From positions 5,014 to 69,013 of IMG/VR virus record IMGVR_UViG_3300023296_001057: a DNA stretch of 64,000 nt; one strand, 5' to 3'. The notes beneath the pieces are model-generated. The model was given only the letters and a program-made list of their open reading frames with translations. It was not told where the DNA came from and ran no database searches. The translations under genes and the position numbers were made by a program. This document shows, piece after piece, positions 180-30,928 of the stretch (the first letter of the stretch is position 1; the number at the start of each line of letters is the position of its first letter). The DNA is from a virus.

Positions 180-180
180 A

Positions 181-542: not shown

Positions 543-568
543 AATTTATAATTCTATTTTTATATTAT

Positions 569-1150
569 TTATTGTTTGCACTCTTCCTGTGTTTTGGTGA
601 ACATTCCATTTCTTACATCGTATAATAATTGTAATGCTATTTCTGTATTATCAATACCAACTACTTTCTGAAATTTATTTAGATCATATTCAATTGCGTA
701 TTTTCTTGCATCCGTCGAACGCTCATCAGGTGAATTCGATTCTACAAAATCAATAGTATTAAAATTATAAAAACCATGTTTGTTTTCTTTGTTGTTATAC
801 TCTATTAGAGCTGGTTTCATATAAGTTAAGTCTTCATTACCTGCCACAAATGTAACATTGGTATATCCCATATTATATAAAAACGTAGCCGCTTCTAAAT
901 AAGTTCGAACATCCTCATCTTCTATAACATCGCCTATCAAATTTGGGTGTATCTTATACAGCCATTTTAATTTTAATTTATATGATAACGGATTCCTCTT
1001 TGCATCTTCACTTTTCGATGTGAAGATTTTATAATCTCCTTTTTCGGTTTTACTATTCTCAATCACAGTATCAAACAAAACACTATGTCCTTTGTTTGGT
1101 GGATTGAATCTACCGAAAGTAAACGTTACGTGAGTTTTTATATTATCCAA
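569..1150 (-). CDS. cytidylyltransferase-like (HIGH-family) nucleotidyltransferase
   Basis: FTFGRFNPPNKGH motif, NPLS..K, C-terminal STDAR; typical T4-like phage cytidyltransferase. Confidence 0.8.
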   Translation of the reverse strand: MDNIKTHVTFTFGRFNPPNKGHSVLFDTVIENSKTEKGDYKIFTSKSEDAKRNPLSYKLKLKWLYKIHPNLIGDVIEDEDVRTYLEAATFLYNMGYTNVTFVAGNEDLTYMKPALIEYNNKENKHGFYNFNTIDFVESNSPDERSTDARKYAIEYDLNKFQKVVGIDNTEIALQLLYDVRNGMFTKTQEECKQ

Positions 1151-2279
1151 ATCGTTCTTTATCAGTTAGGATTTTAAAGTCAGGCGAAATTATTTTAATA
1201 ATTCTACCATCTTTCATTTCTTTTACTACTCCTTCATATGCAATTTCGTTTCCAATATACTGCCTTATACCAAGTTCTTGAAGTGTATTATCATTATGTA
1301 AAATATAATCATATATGTTCAATTTTATATTTCTTAATAAGTTATACACGATCCAAAACATAGCCCATGGTTTGGTGTTATGCAACTCTAATATTTTAAT
1401 TCTTTTATTTACTGATAATTGAATTGAATTCATCCAATCTTTAAATTTAATATCCCCTTTTTGATTTCTTGTTGCAACAGAGAATCTATACAATAACTGT
1501 TTCAGTGTAGTAAATCCTTTCTCTGAAAAATTGCTTATTTTATCTATGTTATCCGATATCATTTTCACGTAATCAATATATGCATACTCAATTGCGGTAT
1601 CTACTGGCAGTCCGTGTATATTAAACGATATTGAATCCAATGTTGGATGTTGTGTGTTCAACACTATCAATTCATCAGTAGTGTTCCAATATTCAATTAT
1701 GAAATCTTCTACTGGGTAAATATTTCCAATGGTTTTAGTACCAAATTCATCAAATTTACCATGCACAACTACAAACACTTCTGCTGTTTGTATTCTTCCA
1801 TTAAATGCACTTTCATCAAATTTAAATGTAATTACATTTGGTGTTACTGATAGAGAAGAATCTAATTTTTCAGAGAAAATAATTTCACCATTCAGATAAC
1901 CTCTAAAATCATCTGGAGTATTTCGTTCTAAAATATCCCACAACTTAGCGTAAGTATCTGCAAATTGGATTCGGAATTGTAAGAATTCATCCTCATTTTG
2001 ATTATTTCGTCTTCTGCCTGTATGGAGTAATTCATCTATCAAACCGTTTTTGTTTAACCGAATTCCTTTCACCCATTGAGTTTTAGGTGAAAGTATAAAT
2101 TCTCCTTTATCATTTCTTCCCCAATAAATAGATCCAGAACCATCCCATTTAAAATCTAATGTGGAAGGATTGGTTATCAGTTCCTGTATTTCTTCTAATA
2201 CAGCGATAACACCGTGTGCCCCTTCTTCTATGATAAAATCTTCTAAATGTTGGTATTCTCTACCTATTCGTTTACTCAT
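1143..2279 (-). CDS. ligase-like nucleotidyltransferase-fold protein
   Basis: N-terminal HLED, KWDG (KxDG motif I), GEII, C-terminal EGVV...IKII. Confidence 0.55.
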   Translation of the reverse strand: MSKRIGREYQHLEDFIIEEGAHGVIAVLEEIQELITNPSTLDFKWDGSGSIYWGRNDKGEFILSPKTQWVKGIRLNKNGLIDELLHTGRRRNNQNEDEFLQFRIQFADTYAKLWDILERNTPDDFRGYLNGEIIFSEKLDSSLSVTPNVITFKFDESAFNGRIQTAEVFVVVHGKFDEFGTKTIGNIYPVEDFIIEYWNTTDELIVLNTQHPTLDSISFNIHGLPVDTAIEYAYIDYVKMISDNIDKISNFSEKGFTTLKQLLYRFSVATRNQKGDIKFKDWMNSIQLSVNKRIKILELHNTKPWAMFWIVYNLLRNIKLNIYDYILHNDNTLQELGIRQYIGNEIAYEGVVKEMKDGRIIKIISPDFKILTDKERFG

Positions 2280-2931
2280 TTTCTATATACGTTTGAACTA
2301 ATACATCCCTTTGTTTTGGGTGTCGTTCCATTGCGATTAAAAATTTACTTATTGAACTTAAATCATCTGCTGTTGCTTGTTCATCTATTAGAATCTTAGC
2401 AATGCCATCTTTAGTATCAGCAATTACTTCTCTATTCTCTCTATTCAGTATTCCGATATAAGGCGACATCATCATATTTCGTTCATCGGTTGATCTCATA
2501 TTCGTTAAATCTGCCCACATTTTATGTAAAGTACCACCTTTCATTTCTGGGTCATCACTGTAATCATGTTGATGGAGAGGTGCGGCTTTTTCTGCGTTTT
2601 TTACAACCATTATATCAATCTGTACAATATCACCATTTTCGTTTTGTGGGATTCCAACATGAACGGATACACCACTACGTTTAGATACATATTCCAACTT
2701 TTCAAAATATTTTGATAATGATATTTTTGATTCTTTAGCAGATATAGAATGAAAATAATTTAATAATTCTTCTTCATCAATTAAAATATCAATATCAGAT
2801 GATTCAGTCTTTTGTCCCGCTGAACCAATAACCCAAAACTGAAACGGTAGTATAGTTTCTAATTTTGTTAGTACATTAGATACATTAGCCAATTTGATTG
2901 ATTTTGCATCTGGAATAATATTTCCACCCAT
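2272..2931 (-). CDS. Pol-beta-like nucleotidyltransferase
   Basis: MGGN start, GSAG.K..SSDIDI motif, third Asp in QIDIM. Confidence 0.7.
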   Translation of the reverse strand: MGGNIIPDAKSIKLANVSNVLTKLETILPFQFWVIGSAGQKTESSDIDILIDEEELLNYFHSISAKESKISLSKYFEKLEYVSKRSGVSVHVGIPQNENGDIVQIDIMVVKNAEKAAPLHQHDYSDDPEMKGGTLHKMWADLTNMRSTDERNMMMSPYIGILNRENREVIADTKDGIAKILIDEQATADDLSSISKFLIAMERHPKQRDVLVQTYIENE

Positions 2932-2966
2932 AGATGTTTTGTTTTACATTATCATTTCTTTGCTAC

Positions 2967-2995
2967 AGTATAACAAATTTTTCATATAATGTCAA
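2967..2995 (-). promoter_or_regulatory. sigma70-type promoter
   Basis: TTGACA-N17-TATACT. Confidence 0.75.
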
Positions 2996-3000
2996 TTTTT

Positions 3001-3060
3001 ATCGGAAATAAAAGCTCTTCTATACATAACATCGGAAATAAAAGCTCCCCTATACATAAC
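3001..3060. repeat. 30-bp tandem duplication
   Basis: atcggaaataaaagctcYYctatacataac x2, 2 mismatches. Confidence 0.9.
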
Positions 3061-3172
3061 ACCTGTAAACGGTACGAGTGTAGTAGGGTCGTGTATTACT
3101 GAAGTTATATAAATTGAGTGTAATACCAAATGGTAAGGCTCCCATTGTTTTTAAAAAGTCTGTTCGTTTCAT
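3050..3172 (-). pseudogene. short ORF or gene remnant with Tat-like leader
   Basis: MKRTDFLKTMGALPFGITL..., similar to the N-terminus of 34816..35625. Confidence 0.4.
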
Positions 3173-3183
3173 AGTTTAATGAT

Positions 3184-3504
3184 TTAATTTAAAGTATTGT
3201 TTGATATAAACTCTATTGTATAATCTTCAAACAAGTTTTGATCTATAAAAAATTGTTGGTCGGTAGATAGATCACTTTGATGGTTGGGTTTTATCATACA
3301 ACTTTCGGCATCCGGTCTGGACTTGAACAGTCCTGGATAATAATTACTACCGACTCTTACCACATATTTAGATTCATTGATAATACCAATATCACTTAAA
3401 TGTTTATATAAAATTGGATTTAAATATGGATTGAGAATCTTATCAAGATTTCCAATATTATTATTGTAGTATTCATTCAATTGATTGTGTAATGTATATT
3501 TCAT
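3184..3504 (-). CDS. hypothetical protein
   Basis: ORF coupled to upstream gene. Confidence 0.6.
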   Translation of the reverse strand: MKYTLHNQLNEYYNNNIGNLDKILNPYLNPILYKHLSDIGIINESKYVVRVGSNYYPGLFKSRPDAESCMIKPNHQSDLSTDQQFFIDQNLFEDYTIEFISNNTLN

Positions 3505-4562
3505 AATGTTAAATGTGGTTTCGCCTCTACTTGCCCAGCGTTTGTTATTTTAGTAAATTTAGCTTTTAAAAAGAAATCATCAATCGAAAATGCACCTGAA
3601 TAAGAAAGAGCCGAACGTAACCCATCATTTAATCCCTTTATCACATACTTCACTCCACCTTTATATGGTACAGTCGTAGATTCACCTTCTATATTTCTTT
3701 GTTCTTGATTATTACTTATTTTAGTTTCCAATGATGCAGATCCTCTATATCGTTTGAAGAGAGTTCCATTTTTTGTTATGACTGGCGCAGGTGTTTCTTG
3801 TGTTCCAGCAAACATAGAACCTAACATTACGGATGATGCTCCAATTGCAAGTGCTTTAGCAATATCACCCGCGTAACGGATTCCACCATCTGCGATAACT
3901 GGTACAGTTGATCTTTCTACTACATCCATAATAGATGTAACGGATGGTACACCATGAGCCGTTTCAATGCGAGTAGAGCATAATGAACCGTTTCCAACAT
4001 TGGCGCGTATTCCATCTACGCCCCAATTGCATAAATCTTCACTCGCTTCTTTCGTTGCTATATTCCCTGCTATAATATCAAACTTCAGTGAAGATGCTTC
4101 ACGAAATCTAATCAATTTCTCTATCATTCTTTTCACATTTAAATGATGCCCATGTGCTACATCAATTAAAATTACATTAGCTCCAGTTCTTATTAACTGG
4201 GATGCATTACTCAGTTGATAATCACCTACACCAATTGAAGCAATAATTGGAATTTCTAGATCACCCCAAAGTTCTCTAATATGGATTTCATCGGTAGCTC
4301 TTTTCAGTTTCAAAATAATATCACACTGATCGTTGATATGCATAAAACGATGTAAACATCCAGCTCCACCTAACTTCATTAAAGAATAACACATATCATA
4401 TTCTGAAATTGTATCCATCGGCGCAGATAAAAACGGAATCTTCAGTTTAAAATTAGTAGTTAATTGTGTAGATAAATCTACATCCGTTCTACTCAATACT
4501 GTACTATATTGTGGTATAATTTGTATGTCATCATACGTTAAACTTTCAATAAATTCTCCCAT
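3501..4562 (-). CDS. IMP dehydrogenase / GMP reductase family protein (no CBS domains)
   Basis: SAPMDT, IDVAHGH, GNGSLCSTR catalytic Cys loop, IADGGIR, MLGSMFAGT, YRGSAS. Confidence 0.9.
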   Translation of the reverse strand: MGEFIESLTYDDIQIIPQYSTVLSRTDVDLSTQLTTNFKLKIPFLSAPMDTISEYDMCYSLMKLGGAGCLHRFMHINDQCDIILKLKRATDEIHIRELWGDLEIPIIASIGVGDYQLSNASQLIRTGANVILIDVAHGHHLNVKRMIEKLIRFREASSLKFDIIAGNIATKEASEDLCNWGVDGIRANVGNGSLCSTRIETAHGVPSVTSIMDVVERSTVPVIADGGIRYAGDIAKALAIGASSVMLGSMFAGTQETPAPVITKNGTLFKRYRGSASLETKISNNQEQRNIEGESTTVPYKGGVKYVIKGLNDGLRSALSYSGAFSIDDFFLKAKFTKITNAGQVEAKPHLTL

Positions 4563-5189: not shown

Positions 5190-5219
5190 ATCTTCATTAT
5201 ATCTGTAGTTCCTTTATTT

Positions 5220-5248
5220 AATATACAAAAATTTGTATTAAATGTCAA
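5220..5248 (-). promoter_or_regulatory. sigma70-type promoter
   Basis: TTGACA-N17-TATATT. Confidence 0.75.
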
Positions 5249-5253
5249 TTAAT

Positions 5254-5290
5254 AAAAAATGGTAACAGGACTATCAATCCCATTACCATA
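5254..5290 (-). terminator. intrinsic terminator
   Basis: ATGGTAATGGGATT...AGTCCTGTTACCAT stem followed by a T-tract, just after the AAA gene. Confidence 0.7.
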
Positions 5291-13706: not shown

Positions 13707-13714
13707 ATGATTAT

Positions 13715-13743
13715 AATATACAAAAAATTCGAACGAATGTCAA
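13715..13743 (-). promoter_or_regulatory. sigma70-type promoter
   Basis: TTGACA-N17-TATATT. Confidence 0.75.
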
Positions 13744-14211
13744 TTAAATATGTTTTTCTTTTCGTAAGTCCATTATCAATTGAGCGTATGAATCAATTAC
13801 TTCACTATTTGTTGTATTGATATGTATAAACTTTTCAGTAGGTGGTTCGTACCACTCTATCCAATTTTTATTTCTGTTAGATGATTCAATATAAATTTCA
13901 ACCATTCGGTTTCCCATTTCCTTCTTGAATTTCTCTCTCTTTTCCTTCTGTGGAGTGATTAACGAAACTACAACATCCGTTTCATTTTTTTGAAGATATG
14001 ATGAAATCAATTGTGCGTTTTTTACTATTTCACTATTCTCTTCATCTAGTAAATTATTATAAGGAGAAACTTCATCAAGCAATTCTGCATCTATATAATA
14101 AACATCCTTCCTCCAATTTCTTCTTTCTGATTTTAAAAACTGAGCAAGTTGTTCACCTAAATCTGATCTATGCGTTCCAGGTTGACCAGTTAACCAATAT
14201 ATTTTTGCCAT
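13744..14211 (-). CDS. adenylylsulfate kinase-like protein (degenerate P-loop)
   Basis: IYWLTGQPG, VVVSLITP...R, YEPP; GKT replaced by HRS. Confidence 0.6.
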   Translation of the reverse strand: MAKIYWLTGQPGTHRSDLGEQLAQFLKSERRNWRKDVYYIDAELLDEVSPYNNLLDEENSEIVKNAQLISSYLQKNETDVVVSLITPQKEKREKFKKEMGNRMVEIYIESSNRNKNWIEWYEPPTEKFIHINTTNSEVIDSYAQLIMDLRKEKHI

Positions 14212-14950: not shown

Positions 14951-15484
14951 TTAGGTGTAATATTCTCTAATATCAATACTACCTTCAACTTCATTTCCCC
15001 AAATATCCCAACCTTGCTTTCCATCCCTGCAAAACATTTCAAGTCGATTAGCACTCGGAAACCAATCTTTTATTAAATCTCGTATGAAATTAGGTTTTTT
15101 ACTGTGTTTTGAGCGTTTTTCTACCATAACACTACTTATTCTTTTATCGCTCGCAGGTGGGCTAAATTTACCTTTCTTTGCCACAATAAGTATTTCGTGC
15201 TGTCCTCTAAACCAATACCCCATTCCAATCATTTGTTTGTCCCAAACACCTTGCGTTACATAAGTAAAGCCCCAAGCATCTATAACTTTTAATGCCTCAA
15301 GTAATTTAGGAGCGGTAGCCCATAAATAAAGTACGGCATTTTTGTTTGTCATATTGTCCACAGGTAAATCGCATATTTCCTTTATGCTCATTGTTGGGTA
15401 TTGGTTTTCAATATCCCTGCTTTTACTTTTACTAAAGTCATATCGCCAAGCAGGGTCGGCATAAATTACATCGTATTTTTTCAT
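14951..15484 (-). CDS. MT-A70 family adenine methyltransferase
   Basis: IYADPAW, YPTM, LYLWAT, WGF.Y, HSKKP, LEMFCR, WGNE. Confidence 0.9.
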   Translation of the reverse strand: MKKYDVIYADPAWRYDFSKSKSRDIENQYPTMSIKEICDLPVDNMTNKNAVLYLWATAPKLLEALKVIDAWGFTYVTQGVWDKQMIGMGYWFRGQHEILIVAKKGKFSPPASDKRISSVMVEKRSKHSKKPNFIRDLIKDWFPSANRLEMFCRDGKQGWDIWGNEVEGSIDIREYYT

Positions 15485-15561
15485 CTTTCGTTATTTTAAT
15501 CCGTTCATACTACACCTAACAATGTGTAAAACGGCATTAAAACGACCGTTTACACTCAGCG
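14951..15561 (+). mobile_element. integron-type gene cassette 1 (MT-A70 MTase, antisense)
   Basis: left end TTAGGTGTA (14951) is the exact reverse complement of TACACCTAA in the attC R'' box (15511-15519); cassette ends at G|TTAGAC. Confidence 0.75.
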
Positions 15562-15567
15562 TTAGAC
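15514..15567 (+). repeat. attC-like recombination site, copy 1
   Basis: R'' ACCTAAC, inner palindrome GTGTAAAACGG/CCGTTTACAC with one extra base, R' GTTAGAC. Confidence 0.75.
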
Positions 15568-16094
15568 CAACTATGTTTCATACGCGAAACTCTATGTTTC
15601 ACTCCTAATTTGGATAACCTTCTTTTCGCTGCTTTCACATTCTCGATAGAATCATCAATAAAAAATACATCATCGTATCCATCTTTTTTTATTTTTTCCT
15701 CGATCCAATCTGCTTTATGTTGAGGATCTGCACTTCCCAACGCTACTACTTCTACATCTCTAATACCAATATCCTTTAAATATATACTTATTGGTTTTGC
15801 CTTACTTCTTGCTGTTAATATATACACACCTCTATTACCCCTTGCTCTTACCATATCTTTTAAAATTCTAGTAATCGCCTTTATTTCAGTGGGATTTTTT
15901 ATAGTATCGAATTCTCTAAAATCAAATTCATCACCTTTTCTTGGTTTATATACTGCATATTGACCAGGTGTTAGTTTACTAATATTTCCACTTTCATGGT
16001 TGACGTATATATATGAATCGGTTTTTATAAGTGTATCATCCATATCAAATACTCTTAGTTTTTTAGATTCTATAAATAAAGTTCTTGCTATCAT
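15537..16094 (-). CDS. HAD-superfamily phosphatase
   Basis: VFDMDDTL, ILTAR, K, FIDDS; C-terminal tail now encoded by the attC. Confidence 0.8.
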   Translation of the reverse strand: MIARTLFIESKKLRVFDMDDTLIKTDSYIYVNHESGNISKLTPGQYAVYKPRKGDEFDFREFDTIKNPTEIKAITRILKDMVRARGNRGVYILTARSKAKPISIYLKDIGIRDVEVVALGSADPQHKADWIEEKIKKDGYDDVFFIDDSIENVKAAKRRLSKLGVKHRVSRMKHSWSNAECKRSF

Positions 16095-16432
16095 TAATCG
16101 CTATCTGATAAATTTTCATTTTCTAAGTCTGCAAAATCTTGATAATAACATTTAAACTTATCATTACTTTTTAAATAATGAATTTCCATTTTGAGTTCAG
16201 CTAATTGAATCTCCAATGATAATATCTTTGCAGTTTGATCTCTTTTTTCTTCTGCGGAACGTTCTAGTAATGCTTCTAATTTTAATATCCGTTCTCTATA
16301 ATCGTGTTTTATATAATTATCATCATCATTTTGTCGTATGAATTTTTCCCGTACATATACCCATATCCATTTTGATGATATGATAGCTGTTAAAATTGCC
16401 ACCGTAATTTTTAATACGTCTACTAATTCCAT
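16094..16432 (-). CDS. membrane-anchored coiled-coil protein
   Basis: N-terminal TM helix then heptad-rich region. Confidence 0.6.
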   Translation of the reverse strand: MELVDVLKITVAILTAIISSKWIWVYVREKFIRQNDDDNYIKHDYRERILKLEALLERSAEEKRDQTAKILSLEIQLAELKMEIHYLKSNDKFKCYYQDFADLENENLSDSD

Positions 16433-16463
16433 TTTTATTTAATTGAGTTTTCAATGAAACTTA

Positions 16464-16762
16464 TTACGATATATACATATTAAGTTCATATGTCTTGCCC
16501 ATATTATATACTTGGAAATGAACTCCCTTCCTTGAAGGTTTCCCATTTTTTAATAATGAAACTGTAAAACTATGTGTCTTCCTTTTGATGGTCTTGATTT
16601 TGTGTAACGTCCACCTAATGAAACTTTGCTCCACCATTCGTCTTCATCTACTTCGTATCCTTTTTTCTTTACTGTCCTTAAAACATATTCCGCTATTGCT
16701 GAAAACGATTCAAAATACGTGTCACTATATTCTTCGTTTAGTAAGTTTTTTAATCGTATCAT
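16464..16762 (-). CDS. hypothetical, probable virion-internal protein (1-nt frameshift near 16580)
   Basis: MIRLKNLLNEE leader; adding one A gives ...SKGKTHSFTVSLLKNGKP...YELNMYIS*. Confidence 0.6.
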
Positions 16763-16765
16763 AAT

Positions 16766-18592
16766 TTATTTTTTAGCAATTTTCCATACAATAGAACCTA
16801 CACCCTTTGCATCCAATTTATTTAATTTTTTCTTAACATTATCGTTAGCTACATCCCAAATTTGCCCTAACAGAGAAGCCGTTTGTAAATCAACTAATAC
16901 CCCATCTATTTTTTTAGCTTGTTTAGAATTAGCGACTCGAAATATACCATTAATAGTATTGGATGGTTCTACTGCTTCATTAATAGATTCATTCTTAGCA
17001 TCCCAATTTTTATCTATATAATCAAAGAATTCTTTTTGTTTCTCGGTTGATAAGTCATCTGGTGATTCTACATCAAATTTTGATAAAACCATCTTAAAGA
17101 ACTTCTGATATTCAGTTTCTTCGTTTACAGTTGGGTCGCATTCATCACATTCTTCATCGTATGCTTCCATTACTGCTCTTTTGTCTTTCAACATTTTTTT
17201 AAGTAATTCTTTTACAATTTTACCACCAGCATCATCATACATTTTATGAGCTCTACCTTCAAATCCTTTAATGGATTCACCTGTTCTTGCAAATTGAACG
17301 TCTCCGTTGGGTGTTTGTAAATAAAATTCACCAAATCCCATATGCTTTACTTCACTGTTAGGTAATACTCCACTTGTTCTGTTAATAAAAGTAGTATCTA
17401 CATATATATCTTTTCCTTTTTTCTTAATATGCCCTTCAGATGCTTCATTGATCATTCCTTCTAATAGTCCACCTGCAATTCCACCTACTTCAAAATCTGG
17501 ATCATCTGCGTATTTCTTACTCAATAGTACAAATGATTTTCTTCCTTTCTTAATTGTCATATGTGGTATAGGAGAAAATGAAAAATCTATTTTCTTAAAT
17601 CCAGCAGCTTTCAATGGATCTCTTAATCCCATTAAATTTCCTGTTGTCTTTACTACACCTTTAATGGTTTCAATATCTTGTGCTGAAAAGTTTTCATTTA
17701 TAGATTCAGTTACTATAATAACGGGTTCATCATATCTATTAGCCCCAATAGTGTATTTTTTACTACTAGTTCCTTTTGTTACAATTAATGTCCCATCGGA
17801 TTTAGTATCAACAACCGTAAAATAATCATTTTTATTTGAACGTTTAAATCCGCTTTCGTTACCCAAATAGAAAACAGAACCCTTTTTAGCCACATCCTCA
17901 AAATCATCTAATGAATTATACTTTTTATTGGATTCATTAATAGATTCATCAATTGCCTTTGGAAATGGTGTTTTCTTAGCTATTTGATATAACTTTTCCA
18001 AATCAGCTGGATCATTTCTATCAAACTTATCAGCGTTTCTGGTTTTCTTAAAAATGGCAGACGTTTTCTTACCATCTTTTTGGAGCATGATAATTATACC
18101 CTTTCCTTTATTATACAATCGTTCGTCAAATACTGAAATGGATTCATTAATAGATTCATTCTTAGCATCCCAATTTTTATCTATGTAATCAAAGAATTCT
18201 TTTTGTTTCTCAGTTGATAGATCGTCTGGTGATTCTACATCGAATTTTGATAAAACTGTCTTAAAGAATTTTTGATATTCAGTTTCTTCGTTTACAGATT
18301 CATCCAAATCCTCTGGTTCATCTAACAATGCTTTATTGAATTTAGTTTCAGCTGTTTTAAATTTTGCGGTTTGGTTTTTAACTTCTTTATGCAGATTTAC
18401 TATTTCTTTTTTTAATTTCTCTTTTTCGTCTGCTGAAGATTTCTTAAATTTATTAACCAATTCTGTTTGTTTATCTAATAAATTTTGGAGTTTTAGTCCC
18501 TCTTGTTGATAAGATTCGGATGCTTGTTTAAATCCTTTTGATATTCCAGCCTCTACTAACTTTGTGCTGATCTTTTGTTTGAGTTTATCCAT
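16766..18592 (-). CDS. multi-domain probable internal head / prohead-core protein
   Basis: domains separated by repeated ES(I/V)NE linkers; duplicated ~50-aa module; likely start MDKLKQK downstream of TACTTATA (18628-18635). Confidence 0.7.
   Translation of the reverse strand: MDKLKQKISTKLVEAGISKGFKQASESYQQEGLKLQNLLDKQTELVNKFKKSSADEKEKLKKEIVNLHKEVKNQTAKFKTAETKFNKALLDEPEDLDESVNEETEYQKFFKTVLSKFDVESPDDLSTEKQKEFFDYIDKNWDAKNESINESISVFDERLYNKGKGIIIMLQKDGKKTSAIFKKTRNADKFDRNDPADLEKLYQIAKKTPFPKAIDESINESNKKYNSLDDFEDVAKKGSVFYLGNESGFKRSNKNDYFTVVDTKSDGTLIVTKGTSSKKYTIGANRYDEPVIIVTESINENFSAQDIETIKGVVKTTGNLMGLRDPLKAAGFKKIDFSFSPIPHMTIKKGRKSFVLLSKKYADDPDFEVGGIAGGLLEGMINEASEGHIKKKGKDIYVDTTFINRTSGVLPNSEVKHMGFGEFYLQTPNGDVQFARTGESIKGFEGRAHKMYDDAGGKIVKELLKKMLKDKRAVMEAYDEECDECDPTVNEETEYQKFFKMVLSKFDVESPDDLSTEKQKEFFDYIDKNWDAKNESINEAVEPSNTINGIFRVANSKQAKKIDGVLVDLQTASLLGQIWDVANDNVKKKLNKLDAKGVGSIVWKIAKK
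16976..17130. repeat. internal domain duplication, copy A
   Basis: encodes VNEETEYQKFFKMVLSKFDVESPDD...WDAKNESINE; near-identical to 18143-18297. Confidence 0.9.
18143..18297. repeat. internal domain duplication, copy B
   Basis: encodes VNEETEYQKFFKTVLSKFDVESPDD...WDAKNESINE. Confidence 0.9.
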
Positions 18593-18662
18593 TGTAGAAT
18601 TTTCCTTTATTAATATTTTTGTATATCTATAAGTATTAGAAAACAATAAAAAACACAATTAT

Positions 18663-19346
18663 TTAAGAAATATAATGATTGAATACCGATGTACGGAATT
18701 TATCTTCCCTATCTTTAGTGGTTTCCCATATACTATTTGATTGGTTTATTTTCGGGTTAGGTTTCAGCCAATTTTGTGGATGTGGTTGAATATACATTTT
18801 TATTTTTTTATTTATACAGTATGCGGATACCCATATATCTAACATATTTGGATAGTCTAAAAAAGCATCATAGGGAATATTTCTAACTACAGATGAATCT
18901 GTTAAACAAACTCCAGTACCTACTGCATGGATTTCTTTTTTCTCTTTTATCGCTCCACCAAAATAATAGCCTGACGTATCCCCGTGATTAAAACTTGATA
19001 TGGGAAGGGAAGGAAACACTTTACCATGTGAAGATTGAATAGTTCCTAATGTATATGTTTTTAGATTTTGCTCCACATAATCAGATGGATATAGAATATC
19101 ATCATCAACCATAAAAAAGTAGAACTCTGAATCTTTGATAAAATCCAACACTTTTATTTTTCCAGTTGCTCCACAGTTACCTTCCATATAATATGTAACA
19201 TTTTCAAATTCTGTAAATGGAACTTCAGTATAATCATTTAACCATACATGAATCTCATCTACTTGTGGAGATAGTGAATTCAACGTATCCCATAATCCTA
19301 CCTTTCTTTCTCTTTGTGATGCAACTCCTACTATTTTCTTCATCAT
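18663..19346 (-). CDS. GT-A fold glycosyltransferase
   Basis: FMVDDDILYP, GTG, DIW. Confidence 0.8.
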   Translation of the reverse strand: MMKKIVGVASQRERKVGLWDTLNSLSPQVDEIHVWLNDYTEVPFTEFENVTYYMEGNCGATGKIKVLDFIKDSEFYFFMVDDDILYPSDYVEQNLKTYTLGTIQSSHGKVFPSLPISSFNHGDTSGYYFGGAIKEKKEIHAVGTGVCLTDSSVVRNIPYDAFLDYPNMLDIWVSAYCINKKIKMYIQPHPQNWLKPNPKINQSNSIWETTKDREDKFRTSVFNHYIS

Positions 19347-20068
19347 CTATTTTTAACTGTTATGTATCCGTTTTTTATATAAGTGGATACGATTTCATCA
19401 CGTAATTTCATATGATTTGATTTTCTCCATGATGAATTATTATCATTTCCATAATTGGAACCTTTGGATGGAAGCGAACCCCACAATTCAATATTATCTT
19501 CTGGATGTGGTGGCACAAATGTATCTACATCGCCTTCCAATTTAGCTAAAAACGATAATTGTATATCTTCTCCATTATCCCATGAGATTGGATTTTCTAC
19601 CCACATATACCGTAAATAATCTTTCTTCATAAACCAAGAATGTCCGACTAAATCAACTTTTTGTGGGACAGAATGGTGTGATCCATTCCATCCTATTTTA
19701 GTATGGGTTTGATAGTTATCTGAATTTAAATATATTCCAGTTGAACCTAAAATACCATCATATCCACTTTCAATAGTATCCAAGCAATTCTGGAACCATT
19801 GATTTCCAGGTATAGTATCATCATCAAAAAACGCTACATATTCGGTTTTAGTAAGCAACCCAAATGAAAATCTACCATGAAATTTAAAGTTATGATTCAA
19901 TGTAGCAACCTTTACATCTAATTCAGATAAATCAAATTGCGTTTCATCTTCTGGTTTATTATACCATATCCAAATATCAGTTGGTTTTATTGTTTGATTT
20001 TGTATTGCTTCAATTTGTTCCTTTAAGTATTGAGGGCGTTTATAACAATTTAATACTACTGTAATCAT
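19343..20068 (-). CDS. GT2-family glycosyltransferase
   Basis: ITVVLNCYKR, FFDDD, GEDI. Confidence 0.85.
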   Translation of the reverse strand: MITVVLNCYKRPQYLKEQIEAIQNQTIKPTDIWIWYNKPEDETQFDLSELDVKVATLNHNFKFHGRFSFGLLTKTEYVAFFDDDTIPGNQWFQNCLDTIESGYDGILGSTGIYLNSDNYQTHTKIGWNGSHHSVPQKVDLVGHSWFMKKDYLRYMWVENPISWDNGEDIQLSFLAKLEGDVDTFVPPHPEDNIELWGSLPSKGSNYGNDNNSSWRKSNHMKLRDEIVSTYIKNGYITVKNR

Positions 20069-21025
20069 TTATCTTTCAAAATCTATATATTTTTTATTTC
20101 CATTTGATGTTAAAATAACATCTACATCATCAAATTTATCCAATTTAGTTTTACCAATATATTTAAAATCATCTAACCATTCATAGATCAATCCATATGT
20201 ATCTGAAAATCCATAATAGGTTATTAAATTAGAACTATCTATATTTTTATAAATATGTACTATATTTTCAATTTCATTAATTTCTCGTAGTGTATGTAGT
20301 TTCATTCTTTTTTTTGAAAATAATATTACATCATTCCATCTTAATTTTTTAAATAGAGTATGATGATACAAATTGTCCAGATTATTAATATCATCATTAA
20401 TATCAACAAGTCCATCACATTGATATTCTTTCCCACTCTTTCTTTTAAATTCACCTAAAACATCACACGTATTATCAAACCCCTTTTTAGAAAATAATAC
20501 AACAGTGCGATGTCCACCTGCAACATTCCACTTTCCTAATACCACATATGGGAGATGAAAATGATTCAATAAATCATCTTCCGAGTTAAACAGAGATTTT
20601 TGAATTTTGAACCAATGATGATTATTTCTTGTACTTTCTGAAATATTTCCAGTATCAAATATTAAATATTTGGATCTTAATAATAACTTTAAAAAAACAT
20701 CATCTGCAGTTGCAAGACCATATTTTCCGAGAATGTGATGGTAAATACTTAAAAATAATGTACAGTCATTATAAACAATATCATTAGTTGTTATAATATT
20801 ACGTTTTTTAAAATGAAAATCGGATGGATAGTTAAGTCCATCAGCCAAATCAGTACCCATTACCGTTTTACCCAATTTATGTTGTAAGGGGTATGATATA
20901 TTCCCATTATTACAACCAACATCATATATAACATTTATATCGTTTGAATCTTGAATAAATTCAAAAACCATATTTTTTTTAAAATCACCGGTTCTTCTAT
21001 AATATGAACTGTTATCTATCATCAT
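20069..21025 (-). CDS. class I SAM-dependent methyltransferase domain protein
   Basis: YDVGCNNG, FLSIYHHI. Confidence 0.7.
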   Translation of the reverse strand: MMIDNSSYYRRTGDFKKNMVFEFIQDSNDINVIYDVGCNNGNISYPLQHKLGKTVMGTDLADGLNYPSDFHFKKRNIITTNDIVYNDCTLFLSIYHHILGKYGLATADDVFLKLLLRSKYLIFDTGNISESTRNNHHWFKIQKSLFNSEDDLLNHFHLPYVVLGKWNVAGGHRTVVLFSKKGFDNTCDVLGEFKRKSGKEYQCDGLVDINDDINNLDNLYHHTLFKKLRWNDVILFSKKRMKLHTLREINEIENIVHIYKNIDSSNLITYYGFSDTYGLIYEWLDDFKYIGKTKLDKFDDVDVILTSNGNKKYIDFER

Positions 21026-22014
21026 GTCTCCTTTAATATTGTATCCACAACTCGTTTTGACGTGATACCATCACCATATGGACACTCAATTTCAATATAT
21101 GGATTTTTTATCAGAATGTCAAATAAATCTTTAAGTTCATTAGGTCTATCACATAAATGTAAGTGTCCTGTATCAATTCCTTCGGGTCTTTCTGTAGTCT
21201 TTCTACATACAATAACTTTCTTATTAAAGAATGAACCCTCTTCCTGTAATCCACCGCTATCTGTTATTATTAATGATGCTGATTTGAGTACCTTAATGAA
21301 GTCATCGTGTTCCATAGGTTCTACTACGTTAACATTAGTTAATAAATTTTTATATTTAATAACATTTGGATTCGGGTGAATCGGTAGGACAAATTCTATA
21401 TGTGGATATTCTTTGGCAATATTATTAATTTCTTCAAACCACTGTTCTATCCAATGATGATTCTCCCGTCTGTGAAGTGTAATTAATACTTTATCTTCAT
21501 ATGTAGGCTTTCCATATTTAGTGAGGTTATCTAGTACTGAATTACCTACTACTTTGATATCACCGTGGACTTTTTCACTCCTCAAATTTTCTGCTGACAA
21601 TTCAGTTGGTGTGAAATTCACATCTGCTATTCGGGATATCATTTGTCTATACCCTTCTTCAGGATATGGATGTTTCATATTTCCGCTACGGAGTCCTGCC
21701 TCTAAGTAGTATATCTTTAATTCCCTATTAAAAGCGGATAGAGCACAACCAAAAGATGAACCTGTGTCACCCTGTACTAATACTGAATCAATCGTATAGT
21801 CATTTGGAAATTGTAACATACAAGAACTTATAATACTATCCAATCTATTAGCTGACCAGTTAGGTATTTTAATTTTATAATCTACTTCTATATTTTTTAG
21901 TAAATCAGGATGCTGTCCTGTAAATAGTAATTTATATTGAGAACTATCTAAAATCTCAATTAATGGTTTTACTTTCAACCATTCGGGCCTTGTACCAAAA
22001 CATATTAAAATCAT
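21022..22014 (-). CDS. wecB: UDP-N-acetylglucosamine 2-epimerase
   Basis: FGTRPE, TGQH, VQGDT, EAGLRS, PEE, HRREN, TDSGGLQEE, TERPE, PYGDG. Confidence 0.95.
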   Translation of the reverse strand: MILICFGTRPEWLKVKPLIEILDSSQYKLLFTGQHPDLLKNIEVDYKIKIPNWSANRLDSIISSCMLQFPNDYTIDSVLVQGDTGSSFGCALSAFNRELKIYYLEAGLRSGNMKHPYPEEGYRQMISRIADVNFTPTELSAENLRSEKVHGDIKVVGNSVLDNLTKYGKPTYEDKVLITLHRRENHHWIEQWFEEINNIAKEYPHIEFVLPIHPNPNVIKYKNLLTNVNVVEPMEHDDFIKVLKSASLIITDSGGLQEEGSFFNKKVIVCRKTTERPEGIDTGHLHLCDRPNELKDLFDILIKNPYIEIECPYGDGITSKRVVDTILKET

Positions 22015-22062
22015 AGTTTATATTTTTTAAAAAGAAATGTCATTTCTTTAGGGAGGAGTAGT

Positions 22063-22491
22063 TCAACTTAAATAGTCAAGAGCTTTCTTATATATTTCTG
22101 TTCTTGCATAATCATCTTCGTTAGGATTAGAAATTCTTTTTAAGTTTATGTTATCTTTCAAATCAGCTATTTTCACAATCTTCGCCAATCGGTTAGACTT
22201 TACATTACTTAAATATGACTTATAAGATGCTGATGGTTTCTTAGTTATTGCTTTAACCGCGAGTGAAACCTCTTTACCAAATACTTTTTCAATTTCCCTG
22301 ATATTTATCTTTGTATCTTCAACAATATCATGTAATAATGCTACAATTCCCAATGATTCAGGCTTAGCATTAAATCCGCCTACACCTTTGAAAACTCGTT
22401 TAATATGATTAAAGTAAGGACTTCCTCCCCTATCTCTATATCCACTATGTAATTTTTCTGCTAATTTATACGCTTTCTTTATGTCAGTCAT
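22063..22491 (-). CDS. HD-domain (SpoT/Mesh1-like) hydrolase
   Basis: H.G..D..G.PY..H, LLHDIVEDT, VKIADLKDN. Confidence 0.85.
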   Translation of the reverse strand: MTDIKKAYKLAEKLHSGYRDRGGSPYFNHIKRVFKGVGGFNAKPESLGIVALLHDIVEDTKINIREIEKVFGKEVSLAVKAITKKPSASYKSYLSNVKSNRLAKIVKIADLKDNINLKRISNPNEDDYARTEIYKKALDYLS

Positions 22492-22891
22492 TCACTTTTG
22501 AAATGTAGAACCAATTACTATTAATAACTTGGTATTTCCATTCTCCTTTAATTTTATTTATAAACTTATCAATAACACTTTCATAGAAAGAACCTTTTCT
22601 TTCAGTTGATGCCGAAAAGTAAAAGAAATCATAACCACTTTGGTTGATAAGTGCTATTGAACCTAAAAGTATTTTATTTATAACACTGAAAATAGACAAC
22701 CCCACAGGAAGTATATTATCATCATAAACACGAACATCATAACGTGATTCGTCATCTGTGGAATTCCAGTCTGCCCATAAAGAACTATTGAGTTCTTCTA
22801 CTTCTTTCAAATAATAGAACTCTAATTCTCTGCTTTCGGAAAGTTGAATTTCCCAAACGTGATTTTCGATATGTATTTTCTTACTTAACAT
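22484..22891 (-). CDS. hypothetical protein
   Basis: ORF directly behind a sigma70-type promoter. Confidence 0.6.
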   Translation of the reverse strand: MLSKKIHIENHVWEIQLSESRELEFYYLKEVEELNSSLWADWNSTDDESRYDVRVYDDNILPVGLSIFSVINKILLGSIALINQSGYDFFYFSASTERKGSFYESVIDKFINKIKGEWKYQVINSNWFYISKVND

Positions 22892-22900
22892 TACATATAT

Positions 22901-22929
22901 AGTATACCGATTTTTTATATAAAAGTCAA
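22901..22929 (-). promoter_or_regulatory. sigma70-type promoter
   Basis: TTGACT-N17-TATACT. Confidence 0.7.
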
Positions 22930-22933
22930 GGGA

Positions 22934-23640
22934 TTAATCAAAAAATATTGTATTATATTCAAATAATTCTCCATCAATTTCAAAACTTTCTCTGGTATTA
23001 CCGAAACTAAATAGTTTTTTAGATAGATTAGCATCAAACTTATCAATTTTTTCGGGCTTTGATCTCCATTTAGTATAAATACCATGTGCAGCCTCCTTAT
23101 ACTTCCATAGACGATCAGACATCACCTGTAGTTCCACGTCCATACCATTAATATTCAACTCAATATGGTGAGCCCCATAATATCCATAATTCGTTCATTA
23201 CCCCTTTTTTTATACTCATAATCAATAATATATTTACTTTGCTTTCTTCTAAAATCTTTAATAAAATCATTCATCTCATCGTAATCTTTGAAAAGAACTA
23301 CACCACGTATTATATCCCCTATTTGGGATAAGGATTTACCTCGTTTTATTACTTTATTTATAATGGAACTGATGGATTTTATCTGATGCATGAATTTGTA
23401 TTCCTGTGATGATCCTTTCTTAGGTAGACCTTTATCAACTATCTTATAAAATATATCTCTCGTATTAGATATTATTTCGCCGTTTTTATTAATAAGATTT
23501 GTTAAAATTTCAATATTCTCTTTCTTACTTCGCTTTCCTCTTAATGCAATAAACTTACGAACTTCTTTATCCATAAGTAAAGCATCATTCCGTTCACTAA
23601 TAAAAGTGGAATCTGGTAACAATTCAATTAGTTTTTTCAT
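22934..23640 (-). CDS. RelA/SpoT-like small alarmone synthetase domain protein (frameshift near 23189)
   Basis: joining the two ORFs gives IKS..S...K...DIIRG...YGYYGAHH...ELQV...AHGIY. Confidence 0.7.
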
Positions 23641-23649
23641 TACGATCAG

Positions 23650-24163
23650 TTGTAAACAATGCTACGTTCTACCATCAAACACCACCACCATAGAATCGTG
23701 CATTCCAGCTTTGCCCGTAACATATTCACCCTTCGTATTTACACCGCAAAATTTTATTCTCTTTTCTATGAATCGGATCTCTTTTTGGTTCGGCAATATA
23801 TGTCTGTGAAATAATTGAGTGCTTGTGCTTACAGGTAAAAGCATTACACATAATTTACCTTTCTTGCTTTCCTCTATTGCCTTAATTACGAACGCATCTT
23901 TAAGTTTTCTGCTATAAGGTGGGTTAATAAAATTTCGCTCCTTCCATTCTACATTTAAACCATCGTGCTTTTCAATATCGTTTTGATACGGGCAAGGGTC
24001 GTAGTTAAAATTAAATTCACCGTTCAATTCATCATAAAAGTATGGTGGTGTAGCCCAATCGTCTTTATGTGGTATATTTCTATTTTTCATAATTTATCTC
24101 TTTAAATCCGCACAGTTTACAACAATGTGTAAACGGCATTAAAACGACCGCTTACACTCAGCG
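23650..24163 (+). mobile_element. integron-type gene cassette 2 (Dam-like MTase, antisense)
   Basis: left core G|TTGTAAAC (23649-23657) is the exact reverse complement of GTTTACAAC in R'' (24115-24123); cassette ends at G|TTATAT. Confidence 0.78.
23662..24090 (-). CDS. phage-type DNA N6-adenine methyltransferase
   Basis: WATPP, F..DPC, DGL...W, FINPPYS, MLLP, F...RIKF. Confidence 0.9.
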   Translation of the reverse strand: MKNRNIPHKDDWATPPYFYDELNGEFNFNYDPCPYQNDIEKHDGLNVEWKERNFINPPYSRKLKDAFVIKAIEESKKGKLCVMLLPVSTSTQLFHRHILPNQKEIRFIEKRIKFCGVNTKGEYVTGKAGMHDSMVVVFDGRT

Positions 24164-24169
24164 TTATAT
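24117..24169 (+). repeat. attC-like recombination site, copy 2
   Basis: R'' TTACAAC ... R' GTTATAT; interior differs from copy 1 by one substitution and one A. Confidence 0.75.
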
Positions 24170-24179
24170 ATAATATATA

Positions 24180-24187
24180 TATAAGTA
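24180..24187 (-). promoter_or_regulatory. putative late promoter motif TACTTATA
   Basis: same TA(C/T)TTAT(A/T) motif is intergenic at 10267, 11549, 18628, 48418, 54725, 56453. Confidence 0.5.
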
Positions 24188-24235
24188 CTGAATTTTAAAA
24201 AATCCGGTACCAAAATATATTAAAATCATATCTTA

Positions 24236-24940
24236 TTACCAAATGCAAGTTTTATTTTCGGTTACTTTCTTATTCAAATATCCTCTATTATTTCCAACTA
24301 TCCAAGGATTTATAGTAGAACCAATATCTATGTATGTGTTATTTGGATTTACCATATGAAGTTGATGTGCTAATATATTCCCCAGTGGACCTGCTGAAAA
24401 AAGGAAAAGTTGATTATTCTTTGTTGCTTTTTCTTTCATCATTTCCAAAATTATTTTTAGTTCGGGATTAAACCAAGAACCAATTTGTATTGATATATAT
24501 TCATCTACTTTAAATGGAAGTTTCTTATTAATCCCTTTTTCATTTGCAACTAATGTAACATCACCTTCCCAATTATTAAATTCAATAAAAAAGTTATCTT
24601 TAAAAAATTCATAATTTGAATTTACAAAAAGATTTGCCCAGGTAACATTATCACAGACAACAGTATCCCGCATCCATTGTACATGATCTGTTGGCTGACA
24701 ACATGGACAACTGATTCCTACATAATACTCCTTGTTTCTATATAAAAAAGATTCCATTAATATCTGATATTCAAATTGGTGAAGATTAGGATTAAATGAC
24801 CATCCATCACAATTAGTAATTGGTTGATTACGTAAAACTTTATATTCACCATCGGCATATTTACTAAAAGAAAATGGTTCTTTATTTTGTAACTTATTAA
24901 AAAGAAAATGAAGATCTGTATGAAAAGATTTTGTTAGCAT
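24236..24940 (-). CDS. GT-D-like glycosyltransferase
   Basis: FSKYADGE, FLFSAGP, YIDIGS. Confidence 0.7.
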   Translation of the reverse strand: MLTKSFHTDLHFLFNKLQNKEPFSFSKYADGEYKVLRNQPITNCDGWSFNPNLHQFEYQILMESFLYRNKEYYVGISCPCCQPTDHVQWMRDTVVCDNVTWANLFVNSNYEFFKDNFFIEFNNWEGDVTLVANEKGINKKLPFKVDEYISIQIGSWFNPELKIILEMMKEKATKNNQLFLFSAGPLGNILAHQLHMVNPNNTYIDIGSTINPWIVGNNRGYLNKKVTENKTCIW

Positions 24941-29731: not shown

Positions 29732-30016
29732 TTTATATTATCCATATTAATATCAGCAAGAAAACTATAAAAATTTTCATCATAAGTAACATCTTCAATT
29801 TTTTCTTTGATTTCTTTAGGTGATTCTGTTATTTTAAAATCAATCCTTTCAATCCTAAGATTTGAGTTATTCATATTTGTATAAAACCATTGCCCAATCT
29901 GAATATCTTTTTTGATAATTCAGTCAAAGCATTTACTACATTATCAACTTCTCGTTGTATTTGTTCCTTTGTTACCTTCATCTTCATTTATTTTTATATA
30001 GTGTTATTGTTTATTT

Positions 30017-30928
30017 TCATGTCCATTTATTAAAATCAGGAGTTTGCTCTACCTTTCCATCACAATGAACCCCTAAGAACTCACAAAATTTACAATTGCG
30101 TTGCTTTTCTCCAGGCGTTTTTCTATATGGTTGATCTTTATATGAGCCATCATCGTTAAACACGTCATCTACAAAATTCATAAACTCTTTATATGCTTTA
30201 TTAGTGGAAGGTGTACCATGAGATGGAACGAATCTGGAAATTCTTGGATTAGACCAACCTGTATCTTTTAGTTTTCTTTTTAGTATTTGATACTCAACTG
30301 TAATTTTATCTAGCGATACATCGAATTTTCCAGCATAGAACTTCTTATACAACAGCATTTGAGAAGTTTTGATCTTATCATTTTTCTCCCAATGTGACCA
30401 ACCCCATGTAGATGTTTTTAAATCTATAATTGTATATATATCTTTTTCTTTATTTCTAATACAAACATCAATAAAACCTAAGAACTGTAAACCTTCTTTT
30501 AGTTGATTATCTAATTTTAATTCGATTCCTACTAACTCATACCCTCTTTTCTTATAAAACTTAGAAGTGTTTGATTTAAACCATTTTAAGATTTGCCTAC
30601 CTTGTCCATAAAACTCTTCCAATTCCAATTGAGTGCAAGGATTTAGGTTATCTATAGATTTTTCTTTTTCTTTTTTAAAGTTATCCACCAATGCTTTCAT
30701 TAACATTGCGTCTAAATTTAACATATCCGCACTCTTCTTAGAACTCTCATACATCTTGGTTAGATAAGTTTGTACAGTATCATGCATACTAGAACCAAAG
30801 ATCAAATGTATAGAAGATTCTTTCTTTGATAATTTATCAATATACTTCAGTTTATATTGTCTTGGGCAATTTGAGTACATTGAAAATTGTGAATACGAAA
30901 CTACCTTTGTTCTTTCTTTTTTACTCAT
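30017..30928 (-). CDS. PD-(D/E)XK (RecB/Cas4-like) exonuclease
   Basis: SYSQ...CP, FG...H, GFID, IDLKT, Q...Y, C-terminal CKFCEF...C. Confidence 0.85.
   Translation of the reverse strand: MSKKERTKVVSYSQFSMYSNCPRQYKLKYIDKLSKKESSIHLIFGSSMHDTVQTYLTKMYESSKKSADMLNLDAMLMKALVDNFKKEKEKSIDNLNPCTQLELEEFYGQGRQILKWFKSNTSKFYKKRGYELVGIELKLDNQLKEGLQFLGFIDVCIRNKEKDIYTIIDLKTSTWGWSHWEKNDKIKTSQMLLYKKFYAGKFDVSLDKITVEYQILKRKLKDTGWSNPRISRFVPSHGTPSTNKAYKEFMNFVDDVFNDDGSYKDQPYRKTPGEKQRNCKFCEFLGVHCDGKVEQTPDFNKWT

Follow-up and report, generated by a model that had tools for sequence, protein, structure and literature searches.

The DNA studied here, referred to as the window, is a stretch of 64,000 nt within the IMG/VR virus record IMGVR_UViG_3300023296_001057, which has 69,013 nt and is rated 36% complete by CheckV. 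Its subject is a pair of short hairpin elements and the two DNA methyltransferase genes beside them. We consider it quite probable that both elements serve as attC-type recombination sites at the ends of mobile cassettes with one gene each, and that a tyrosine recombinase of the Xer/IntI clade moves these cassettes. Genes for a family-B DNA polymerase, a ribonucleotide reductase and a DnaB-type helicase surround them, indicating that the window is the replication module of a large phage. The minus strand carries every gene across 13.5-25.5 kb.

Both elements are read on the plus strand. Site 1 (15512-15569, +) has an R'' box ending at 15520, an inner hairpin at 15524-15555 and the R' GTT at 15561-15563. 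Site 2 (24115-24171, +) has R'' at 24115-24123, the inner hairpin at 24127-24157 and the R' GTT at 24163-24165. In both, R'' ends with AAC, R' starts with GTT, and the hairpin carries the same 17-nt loop region. The initial annotation, which placed the elements at 15514-15567 and 24117-24169, had described a shared interior and an attC architecture of R'' AAC, inner palindrome and R' GTT. The interiors differ only by one extra A and one T/C change, with a bulged A in the stem of site 1 and none in site 2. A covariance model (R1, built from the wider family described below, whose stem covaries) scored site 1 at 64.1 bits and site 2 at 65.0 bits (E ~1e-11). The next-best R1 match in the window had 15 bits, and a weak match at 46789-46836 (-) was rejected because it lies inside a coding frame and is without AAC/GTT. 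When up to 3 mismatches were allowed, the 17-mer loop occurred exactly twice in the window, compared with 0.08 expected and with two or more copies in 0 of 100 shuffles; its count across the whole record was also 2. An Rfam E-value search with six loci, including both window sites, gave no match, and neither did a megablast of 11 kb of the window against a phage collection. A home-made generic detector (AAC-hairpin-GTT plus far core) was dropped, as it returned 186 matches in the window and 137-232 in shuffles.

Each site closes a single cassette, and no integron platform lies alongside the two, which have the same polarity and are 8.6 kb apart. Cassette 1 (14951-15561, +) extends from the TT of its far core to the G of the site GTT and holds one gene antisense to the site, for an MT-A70-family DNA methyltransferase of 177 aa (14951-15484, -; PF05063, 1e-24; phrog_359 DNA methyltransferase, 4.9e-61). 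Cassette 2 (23650-24163, +) extends in the same way from the TT of a far core whose G is 23649 to the G of its site GTT, and holds one antisense gene for a Dam-type N6-adenine DNA methyltransferase of 142 aa (23662-24090, -; PF05869, 5.4e-20). On the coding strand the hairpin is upstream of both methyltransferase genes, at an R''-to-start-codon distance of ~27-30 nt. The 5' leaders of cassette 1 (15485-15511, -) and cassette 2 (24091-24114, -) both contain CGGATT, seen on the plus strand as AATCCG at 15498-15503 and 24105-24110. At the far end of each gene R'' returns in inverted form. For cassette 1, R'' is complementary over 9 nt to a far core at 14951-14959, which is preceded by T. For cassette 2, R'' (24115-24123) is the reverse complement of the far core at 23649-23657, that is, GTT plus 6 nt. 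One methyltransferase per cassette, antisense genes with the site upstream of the start codon, the common leader motif and the match of each R'' to the far core of its own gene had all been proposed in the initial annotation, and each of these points held.

The cassette boundaries were examined with assembled contigs from four other salt-lake/lake metagenomes, which were aligned to the window region. The contigs part from the window just before 14951, where their differing contexts end in G. They part again just after 15563/15564, with four different continuations, and likewise just after 24166/24168. One contig (X3 record 11) covers exactly 14951-15515, and another (X3 record 15), 89% identical over the Dam gene, is alignable starting exactly at 23649. 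Summed contig depth was several-fold higher in the cassette bins than in the flanks. Moreover, the MT-A70 protein of cassette 1 has a 95%-identical counterpart between two such sites in viral locus L024, and L043 and L063 carry it too, beside other neighbours but with an unchanged start core.

The gene next to cassette 1 encodes a HAD-family phosphatase of 185 aa (15537-16094, -; Pfam matches), and its final 9 codons, stop included, lie within site 1. Other listed homologues are 173-182 aa long in 116 of 119 cases. The 8 homologues whose C-termini were read all end 1-3 residues past a conserved Trp, compared with 9 residues in the window. When 14951-15561 is removed, the predicted protein has 178 aa and ends two residues past this Trp. 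Judged from these comparisons, the HAD gene appears to be the target of the cassette 1 insertion, with homologue ends that match the predicted empty site. The target has a T rather than a G before TT, which points to a secondary site. HAD relatives in IMG/VR were also tried as an empty-site comparison and proved unusable (58% identity, 273 aa with a C-terminal extension). For the protein encoded at 24236-24940, no relative was found in IMG/VR.

Stem, far cores and orientation across the element family

IMG/VR was scanned with the 17-mer, and at least 120 viral stretches were found; the family counts below come from the matches listed. The strict architecture (AAC at 8-14 nt on the 5' side of the loop, GTT at 9-18 nt on its 3' side) was present in 107 of 125 viral occurrences among these matches. 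After both window copies were added and duplicates dropped, 100 unique viral elements remained, of which 99 form the alignment (A1) from which R1 was built. AAC and GTT are invariant or nearly so across A1. The inner helix (helix 2) is 86.7% paired, and 9 of its 12 pairs show changes on both sides. The stem covariation score was 0.336, compared with 0.161 in shuffles, and was reached by 0 of 500 shuffles; pairing fell to 27-36% when the partner columns were slid by 1-3. These results indicate that the stem is kept as a structure. In the aligned elements the unpaired stretch measures 1-3 nt on the 5' side, compared with 5-7 nt on the 3' side. Extrahelical bases, and a spacer left unpaired between R and L boxes, are known features of attC sites.

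In the outer helix, conservation is limited to (T/C)AAC with GTT(A/G), and the complementarity of R'' to the adjacent R' is otherwise that of shuffled pairs. R'' pairs instead with the first bases of its own cassette, because the crossover would fall inside G/TT, so that the bases after the G beside the hairpin would belong to the next cassette. This was examined for 92 unique viral elements whose flanks reach 300 nt or more, by searching up to 1.5 kb on the gene side and comparing with 200 permutations. The reverse complement of R'' was found as a 7-mer for 70 of the 92 elements (permuted mean 13.1, maximum 21) and as an 8-mer for 59 (permuted mean 4.4, maximum 10). A G directly precedes the far core in 59 of the 70 matches. 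The cassette signature that the initial annotation had drawn from two copies is thus a property of the family. It had also named a lack of matching distal cores in other copies as evidence against cassettes; the cores are present in the 70 viral cases and, among bacterial elements, in 33 of 55 as a 7-mer (10.7 expected) and in 25 of 55 as an 8-mer (3.9 expected). Many far cores adjoin another hairpin with a different loop, indicating that the cassettes are arrayed.

The antisense orientation of the window genes is also general in phages. The flanking open reading frames (ORFs), listed as left and right of the 107 viral elements, were (-,-) in 71 cases, (none,-) in 19 and (-,none) in 9, all antisense to the site. 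Most phage loci have the element 27-60 nt upstream of the start codon, as seen on the coding strand. The leader pentamer ATCCG (plus strand; CGGAT on the coding strand) occurs on the gene side of 26 of 99 elements and on the other side of 1 of 99. In viral loci between L003 and L122 and in both window leaders, CGGAT stands 15-23 nt from AAC; a possible role is that of an expression signal carried along by the cassette. A shorter variant of the hairpin was also seen, with the same 17-nt loop on a stem GTTATG...CATAAC and without the flanking AAC...GTT (L012:1604, L038:1051, L040:1172 and 4042, L057:8475, L071:7029 and L105:439); it may be a minimal or a decayed site.

At least 120 bacterial contigs carry the 17-mer as well (L133-L252), mostly from Flavobacteriia and other Bacteroidota. 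Among the matches listed, 59 of 120 bacterial occurrences have the strict architecture. These copies mostly follow sense genes, with the stop codon beside R'': of the 59, 20 were (+,+), 14 (+,none) and 7 (-,-). R1 gave 50 matches in 43 bacterial loci, mostly one per 8 kb or less, and dense chromosomal arrays are therefore not claimed. XerA-like recombinases of 347-675 aa were seen within a few kb of the element in bacterial loci L224, L190 and L142, and in L195 only a 228-aa ORF was read; the arrangements in these four loci differ from the phage geometry described below.

Two cultured phages carry the element, Polaribacter phage P12002L and Tenacibaculum phage JQ. In P12002L it lies at 30006-30043, within a run of three methyltransferase genes on one strand. 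Methyltransferases are also numerous among the Pfam matches of the 80 unique proteins beside the element (21 N6_N4_Mtase, 6 MT-A70, 3 C5, 2 N6_Mtase, 1 Dam, 1 EcoRI-type and 1 D12); the others include 2 Acb2/Tad1 hairpin proteins and single matches such as DUF3850. PHROGs concurs on the methyltransferases. In the accessible text of Qi et al. 2023 (PMC9892861), 17 integrase-less attC clusters (CALINs) are reported from 10,705 phage genomes and complete integrons are reported only from temperate phages. One such cluster, with two putative DNA methyltransferase genes, is that of the virulent phage P12002L, predicted with the published attC covariance model and HattCI. Since three methyltransferase genes were read in the P12002L array, the two sites of Qi et al. 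are likely to be the elements found here.

Filled and empty sites in near-identical phages provided a direct view of the insertions. Phage contigs L042 and L060 are 99% identical. In L042, 384 nt are inserted at a GTT belonging to a 17-mer-type site. The first bases of this insert are TT and the complement of its own R''; one antisense ORF of 80 aa follows, and after it come the insert's own hairpin, whose loop is long and AT-rich, and a G. In L060, 745 nt are inserted at a GTT, comprising two cassettes with their own hairpins and matching R''. The counterpart of this insertion point in L042 is a minimal, hairpin-less GTT site 40 nt upstream of the recombinase gene. The Polaribacter phages Freya_1 and Freya_10 have 100% identity over 6,158 nt on one flank and 99.8% over 1,921 nt on the other, and between these flanks they differ by a block of ~4.9 kb (their records differ by 4,942 nt) at a GTT 46 nt upstream of the integrase start. 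The extra block contains small co-directional genes. Across Freya_1 to Freya_10 (MT732463-MT732472), all from one host strain, the records are 43,978 to 48,920 nt long, with integrase offsets that move from 71 to 4168. No target duplication was present at the junctions read in L042/L060 and Freya_1/Freya_10. Clean empty sites in relatives had been predicted at the outset; they exist in these two pairs, but none was found for the window's own sites.

Compact recombinases and cassette arrays in relatives

Among 35 larger element-bearing viral records, 14 have PF00589 matches, and eight of these are proteins of 269-281 aa. The L042 recombinase (271 aa) and Pyrococcus XerA (4a8e; 4.4e-31) can be aligned from one end to the other. 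With Vibrio IntI4 (2a3v) the L042 protein aligns in two stretches only, having 39 residues where IntI4 has 86. When ten recombinases were tested, the best model in 10 of 10 was NCBIfam XerA/'integron integrase', at 153-229 bits for a cut-off of 220.

A profile scan found relatives of these recombinases in 262 viral stretches, of which the best 80 were kept. Links between inverted repeats (IR links) were analyzed in 66 of the 80 loci, after 14 with less than ~900 nt of upstream sequence were dropped. An IR link was defined as GTT plus 6 nt whose reverse complement, ending with AAC, follows within 150-1800 nt; an inverted GTT...AAC pair reads alike on both strands, and the evidence is therefore the comparison of upstream with downstream sequence only. 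Upstream of the recombinase gene, 186.6 kb of sequence yielded 310 IR links, compared with 55 from the 191.5 kb downstream; 62 of the 66 loci had one or more upstream links. The longest ORF per IR link was on the recombinase strand in 229 of 239 cases. The R1 scan covered 62 loci, after 4 more were dropped as contigs already used. It gave 59 sites in 32 of the 62 loci, and all 59 lie upstream of the recombinase gene on the opposite strand.

The first cassette also begins close to the recombinase gene in most loci. After the near-duplicates L254, L259, L288 and L289 were left out, 38 of 57 loci had their first linked GTT at most 80 nt from the recombinase start codon (median 52 nt), and a conserved AT-rich motif precedes this GTT. 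In most loci this GTT sits 36-52 nt upstream of the start of a recombinase of 263-281 aa, and it would function as an attI site. The geometry in the relatives is integron-like: a recombinase gene, an attI-like site and an array of one polarity, with cassette genes that face the recombinase gene. The initial annotation had called for a search for further attC sequences and for integrases; the viral and bacterial contigs and the linked recombinases of relatives are its yield, but the window's own record lacks a recombinase.

Only ~20 of 142 ORFs in the recombinase-proximal arrays have a Pfam match. The matches include methyltransferases, Tad6 (4.6e-41), 2 ART-PolyVal proteins and one TnpB-type insertion sequence. 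The last, L302:2827-3990, is of the TnpB/OrfB_IS605 type with a Cas12f-like TNB domain, its locus being assigned by ORF length.

Proposed mechanism and competing explanations

The anatomy of the sites and the comparisons among relatives suggest how the cassettes may move. A cassette would consist of the TT of a GTT core, a leader with one antisense gene, and then its own hairpin site; the site in turn would comprise R'' ending with AAC, a covarying inner stem, the loop, a spacer without pairing and, from the following GTT, the G. Excision of the cassettes, presumably as circles, and their insertion would be the work of a tyrosine recombinase from the Xer/IntI clade, probably acting on a folded single strand. 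In many related phages this enzyme would be the compact recombinase whose gene adjoins the array. Possible targets are the GTT of another site, the attI-like GTT before a recombinase gene, or a look-alike secondary site. For the window phage the enzyme might be encoded in the unassembled 64% of the genome, by the host or by a co-infecting phage. Cassette 1 would have landed in the last codons of the HAD phosphatase gene at a TTT look-alike site, and cassette 2 at a GTT in front of the 23155-23640 gene. Since both cassettes point the same way as the neighbouring genes, the methyltransferases can be expressed by read-through transcription, and they would shield phage DNA from host restriction. 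The initial annotation had attributed the acquisition of such cassettes to a host or phage integrase; the acquisition agrees with the anatomy and the comparative evidence, and an integrase of either source working through circles would be the probable means.

A broader proposal, which we favor with modest confidence, is that Bacteroidota phages run an integron-like system of their own, with a compact recombinase that resembles XerA and lacks the IntI-specific domain, an attI-like GTT 36-52 nt before its gene, arrays of inverse cassettes and counter-defence cargo. The cargo would be a fast-turnover arsenal of methyltransferases, Tad6, Acb2/Tad1-like proteins, ADP-ribosyltransferases and mostly unknown small proteins. 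The hairpin type would be common to this system and to the cassettes of host genomes, with opposite gene orientation, and the window cassettes would be strays of the system, one of them at a secondary site inside a gene.

Several observations weigh against the cassette reading or against a phage enzyme behind it. The asymmetry of G-T and A-C wobbles in the stem singles out neither strand as the folded one. The stems of L114, L096 and L043 resemble hybrids of two types, and crossovers inside the conserved loop also fit them. In the window, the left junction of cassette 1 is a T instead of G, and no empty-site relative was found for either site. The sole relative joint in X3 (22014 to 24276) deletes 22015-24275 and follows no cassette boundary; it was rejected as a cassette excision, because it is a larger replacement of 2.26 kb by 34 other letters. 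As for the enzyme, the initial annotation had reported no tyrosine recombinase in the window, and no PF00589 match was found anywhere in the 69-kb, 36% complete record. Tyrosine recombinases are also absent from P12002L and Tenacibaculum phage JQ, and 21 of the 35 larger element-bearing viral records have no PF00589 match, five of them rated 100% complete. Taken together, these records argue that a phage-encoded enzyme is not general. Moreover, the compact recombinases are short by ~47 residues at the extra stretch of IntI4, and their TIGR02249 scores (73-208 bits) are all below the integron-integrase cut-off of 265, indicating that they are relatives of the integron integrases and not members by the classical criterion. 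Finally, the accessible text of Bartlau et al. 2021 (PMC8776804) uses the integrases of Freya and Ingeline as markers of lysogeny.

Much of this would also fit an account in which host enzymes alone, either a classical integron integrase or host Xer, move real cassettes. The phages would then be passive carriers, as with integrase-less attC clusters, and the compact recombinase would be a lysogeny integrase with attP beside a hypervariable region. In the accessible text of Qi et al. (PMC9892861), the bottom strand of P12002L_attC2, one of the two sites, was recombined with attI1 by IntI1, which favors a host enzyme. The hairpin type is found in Bacteroidota genomes too, tyrosine recombinases are missing from P12002L, JQ, the window's record and 21 of the 35 larger records, and integrases are a sign of temperate life for Bartlau et al. 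(PMC8776804). However, 59 of 59 R1 matches lie upstream of the recombinase gene, with polarity opposite to it. The first cassette begins 36-52 nt from its start codon in most loci, and the Freya isolates differ exactly at the attI-like GTT. In size the enzymes are like Xer, and with XerA (4a8e), the nearest relative of solved structure, the alignment runs through from end to end. In addition, cassette genes are antisense in phages and mostly sense in bacteria, which argues for two separate cassette pools. We regard movement by host enzymes alone as unlikely.

The hairpin might instead be mainly a cis-regulatory signal of the 5' untranslated region, with genes shuffled by homologous recombination between its conserved copies, much like the promoter-early-stem-loop cassettes of T4-type phages. 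Its usual place in phage loci, at 27-60 nt before the start codon when the coding strand is read, its loop identical to the letter, the leader motif on the gene side (26/99 vs 1/99) and the stem hybrids of L114, L096 and L043 would all suit such a role. Homologous recombination, however, would not produce the inverted R'' found at each gene's far end, and cassette 1 lies inside the HAD gene, where there is no homology. Inserted cassettes bear hairpins with unrelated loops, and bacterial copies come after the stop codon of sense genes. Besides the lack of an Rfam match, scans for sigma-70 promoters and terminators showed no excess over shuffles (promoters, 55 vs 58.7). A mainly regulatory hairpin is very improbable, and a regulatory role in addition to recombination is possible. 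That the units are small transposons or elements like MITEs (miniature transposable elements with inverted repeats), moved by a transposase, can hardly be credited: an inverted repeat of 7-9 nt does flank each gene, but the repeats vary between cassettes save for GTT/AAC, the hairpin lies outside the repeat, insertions enter the GTT of another site without target duplication at the junctions read, and no transposase is linked, the lone TnpB-like ORF among 142 resembling a landed insertion sequence.

Some further features of the window were recorded. The region 22015-24275 contains four small genes and the Dam cassette; its replacement in one X3 contig marks it as an accessory island in relatives. 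A direct repeat of 191 nt, 86% identical between 16976-17166 and 18143-18333, lies within a 630-aa ORF (16766-18658, -), and 16973-17440 (468 nt) is missing from contigs of three further samples, which thus have the repeat protein in a variant of different length. A repeat family with copies at 5215-5268, 13710-13745, 40933-40986, 54724-54777 and 58655-58694 reads on the minus strand as a promoter with a near-perfect TTGACA, a 17-nt spacer and TATATT/TATAAT; these copies are probably host-type promoters of the phage. The ribonucleotide reductase ORF (44470-48384, 1304 aa) has an internal match to the HNH endonuclease family at residues 424-636, which suggests an intein or an inserted endonuclease.

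Implications and relation to known systems

Integrons are known as bacterial gene-capture devices, and in phages a few integrase-less attC clusters and captured bacterial integrons have been reported so far. Here hundreds of viral contigs show the cassette signature, and it is tied to a compact recombinase falling outside what is classically defined as an integron integrase. If the compact enzyme moves the cassettes, the notion of the integron widens, and lytic and temperate flavobacterial phages would swap anti-restriction and anti-defence genes one at a time. It would also mark out a large reservoir of small, uncharacterized proteins encoded by cassettes: among the 142 array ORFs, ~120 have no Pfam match and are candidate counter-defence factors. 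The inverse orientation in phages, compared with the sense orientation in bacteria, is a new fact for models of cassette origin and expression. The cultured phages Freya_1 to Freya_10 and P12002L, together with their hosts, make the mechanism directly testable.

Like bacterial integron cassettes, the phage cassettes are single-gene units with AAC/GTT ends, a stem kept in structure rather than sequence, and a G/TT crossover. In relatives, the arrays of uniform polarity beside a tyrosine recombinase gene, with an attI-like site in front, also resemble bacterial integrons. On the other hand, cassette genes in phages run antisense to the site, in the direction of the recombinase gene, and the sense-oriented cassette genes usual in integron platforms, where a promoter Pc expresses them, are not the rule. 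The linked recombinase, at 263-281 aa, is without the IntI-specific stretch and closest to XerA; the loop is conserved to the letter at many sites; and the window holds two scattered cassettes and no platform.

Xer recombination is known to act on folded single-stranded phage DNA, as at the attP of CTX phage, and pdif modules are flanked by inverted 28-bp dif-like sites (11-6-11). The proposed phage system is like Xer-CTX and the Xer-dif resistance modules of Acinetobacter plasmids in that Xer-type enzymes act on a hairpin substrate or move discrete modules between inverted sites. Unlike Xer-dif, it has no 11-6-11 dif-like site at its junctions; its sites have attC architecture, with a hairpin of its own for each cassette. 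Promoter-early-stem-loop cassettes of T4-type phages are mobile regulatory cassettes shuffled by homology. They are similar in placing short conserved stem-loops before accessory genes in hyperplastic regions, but they are without the G/TT boundary and the inverted far-end copy. From MITEs and other inverted-repeat transposons the units differ by repeats that are variable apart from GTT/AAC and by junctions read without duplication; the accessible text of a MITE survey (PMC11602168) does not mention the element.

Our literature searches found no paper on a phage integron with a compact recombinase, on the antisense rule or on the breadth of the family. Compared with what the accessible text of Qi et al. 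(PMC9892861) describes, the compact recombinase platform, the antisense rule, the far-core statistics and the environmental breadth are additional here.

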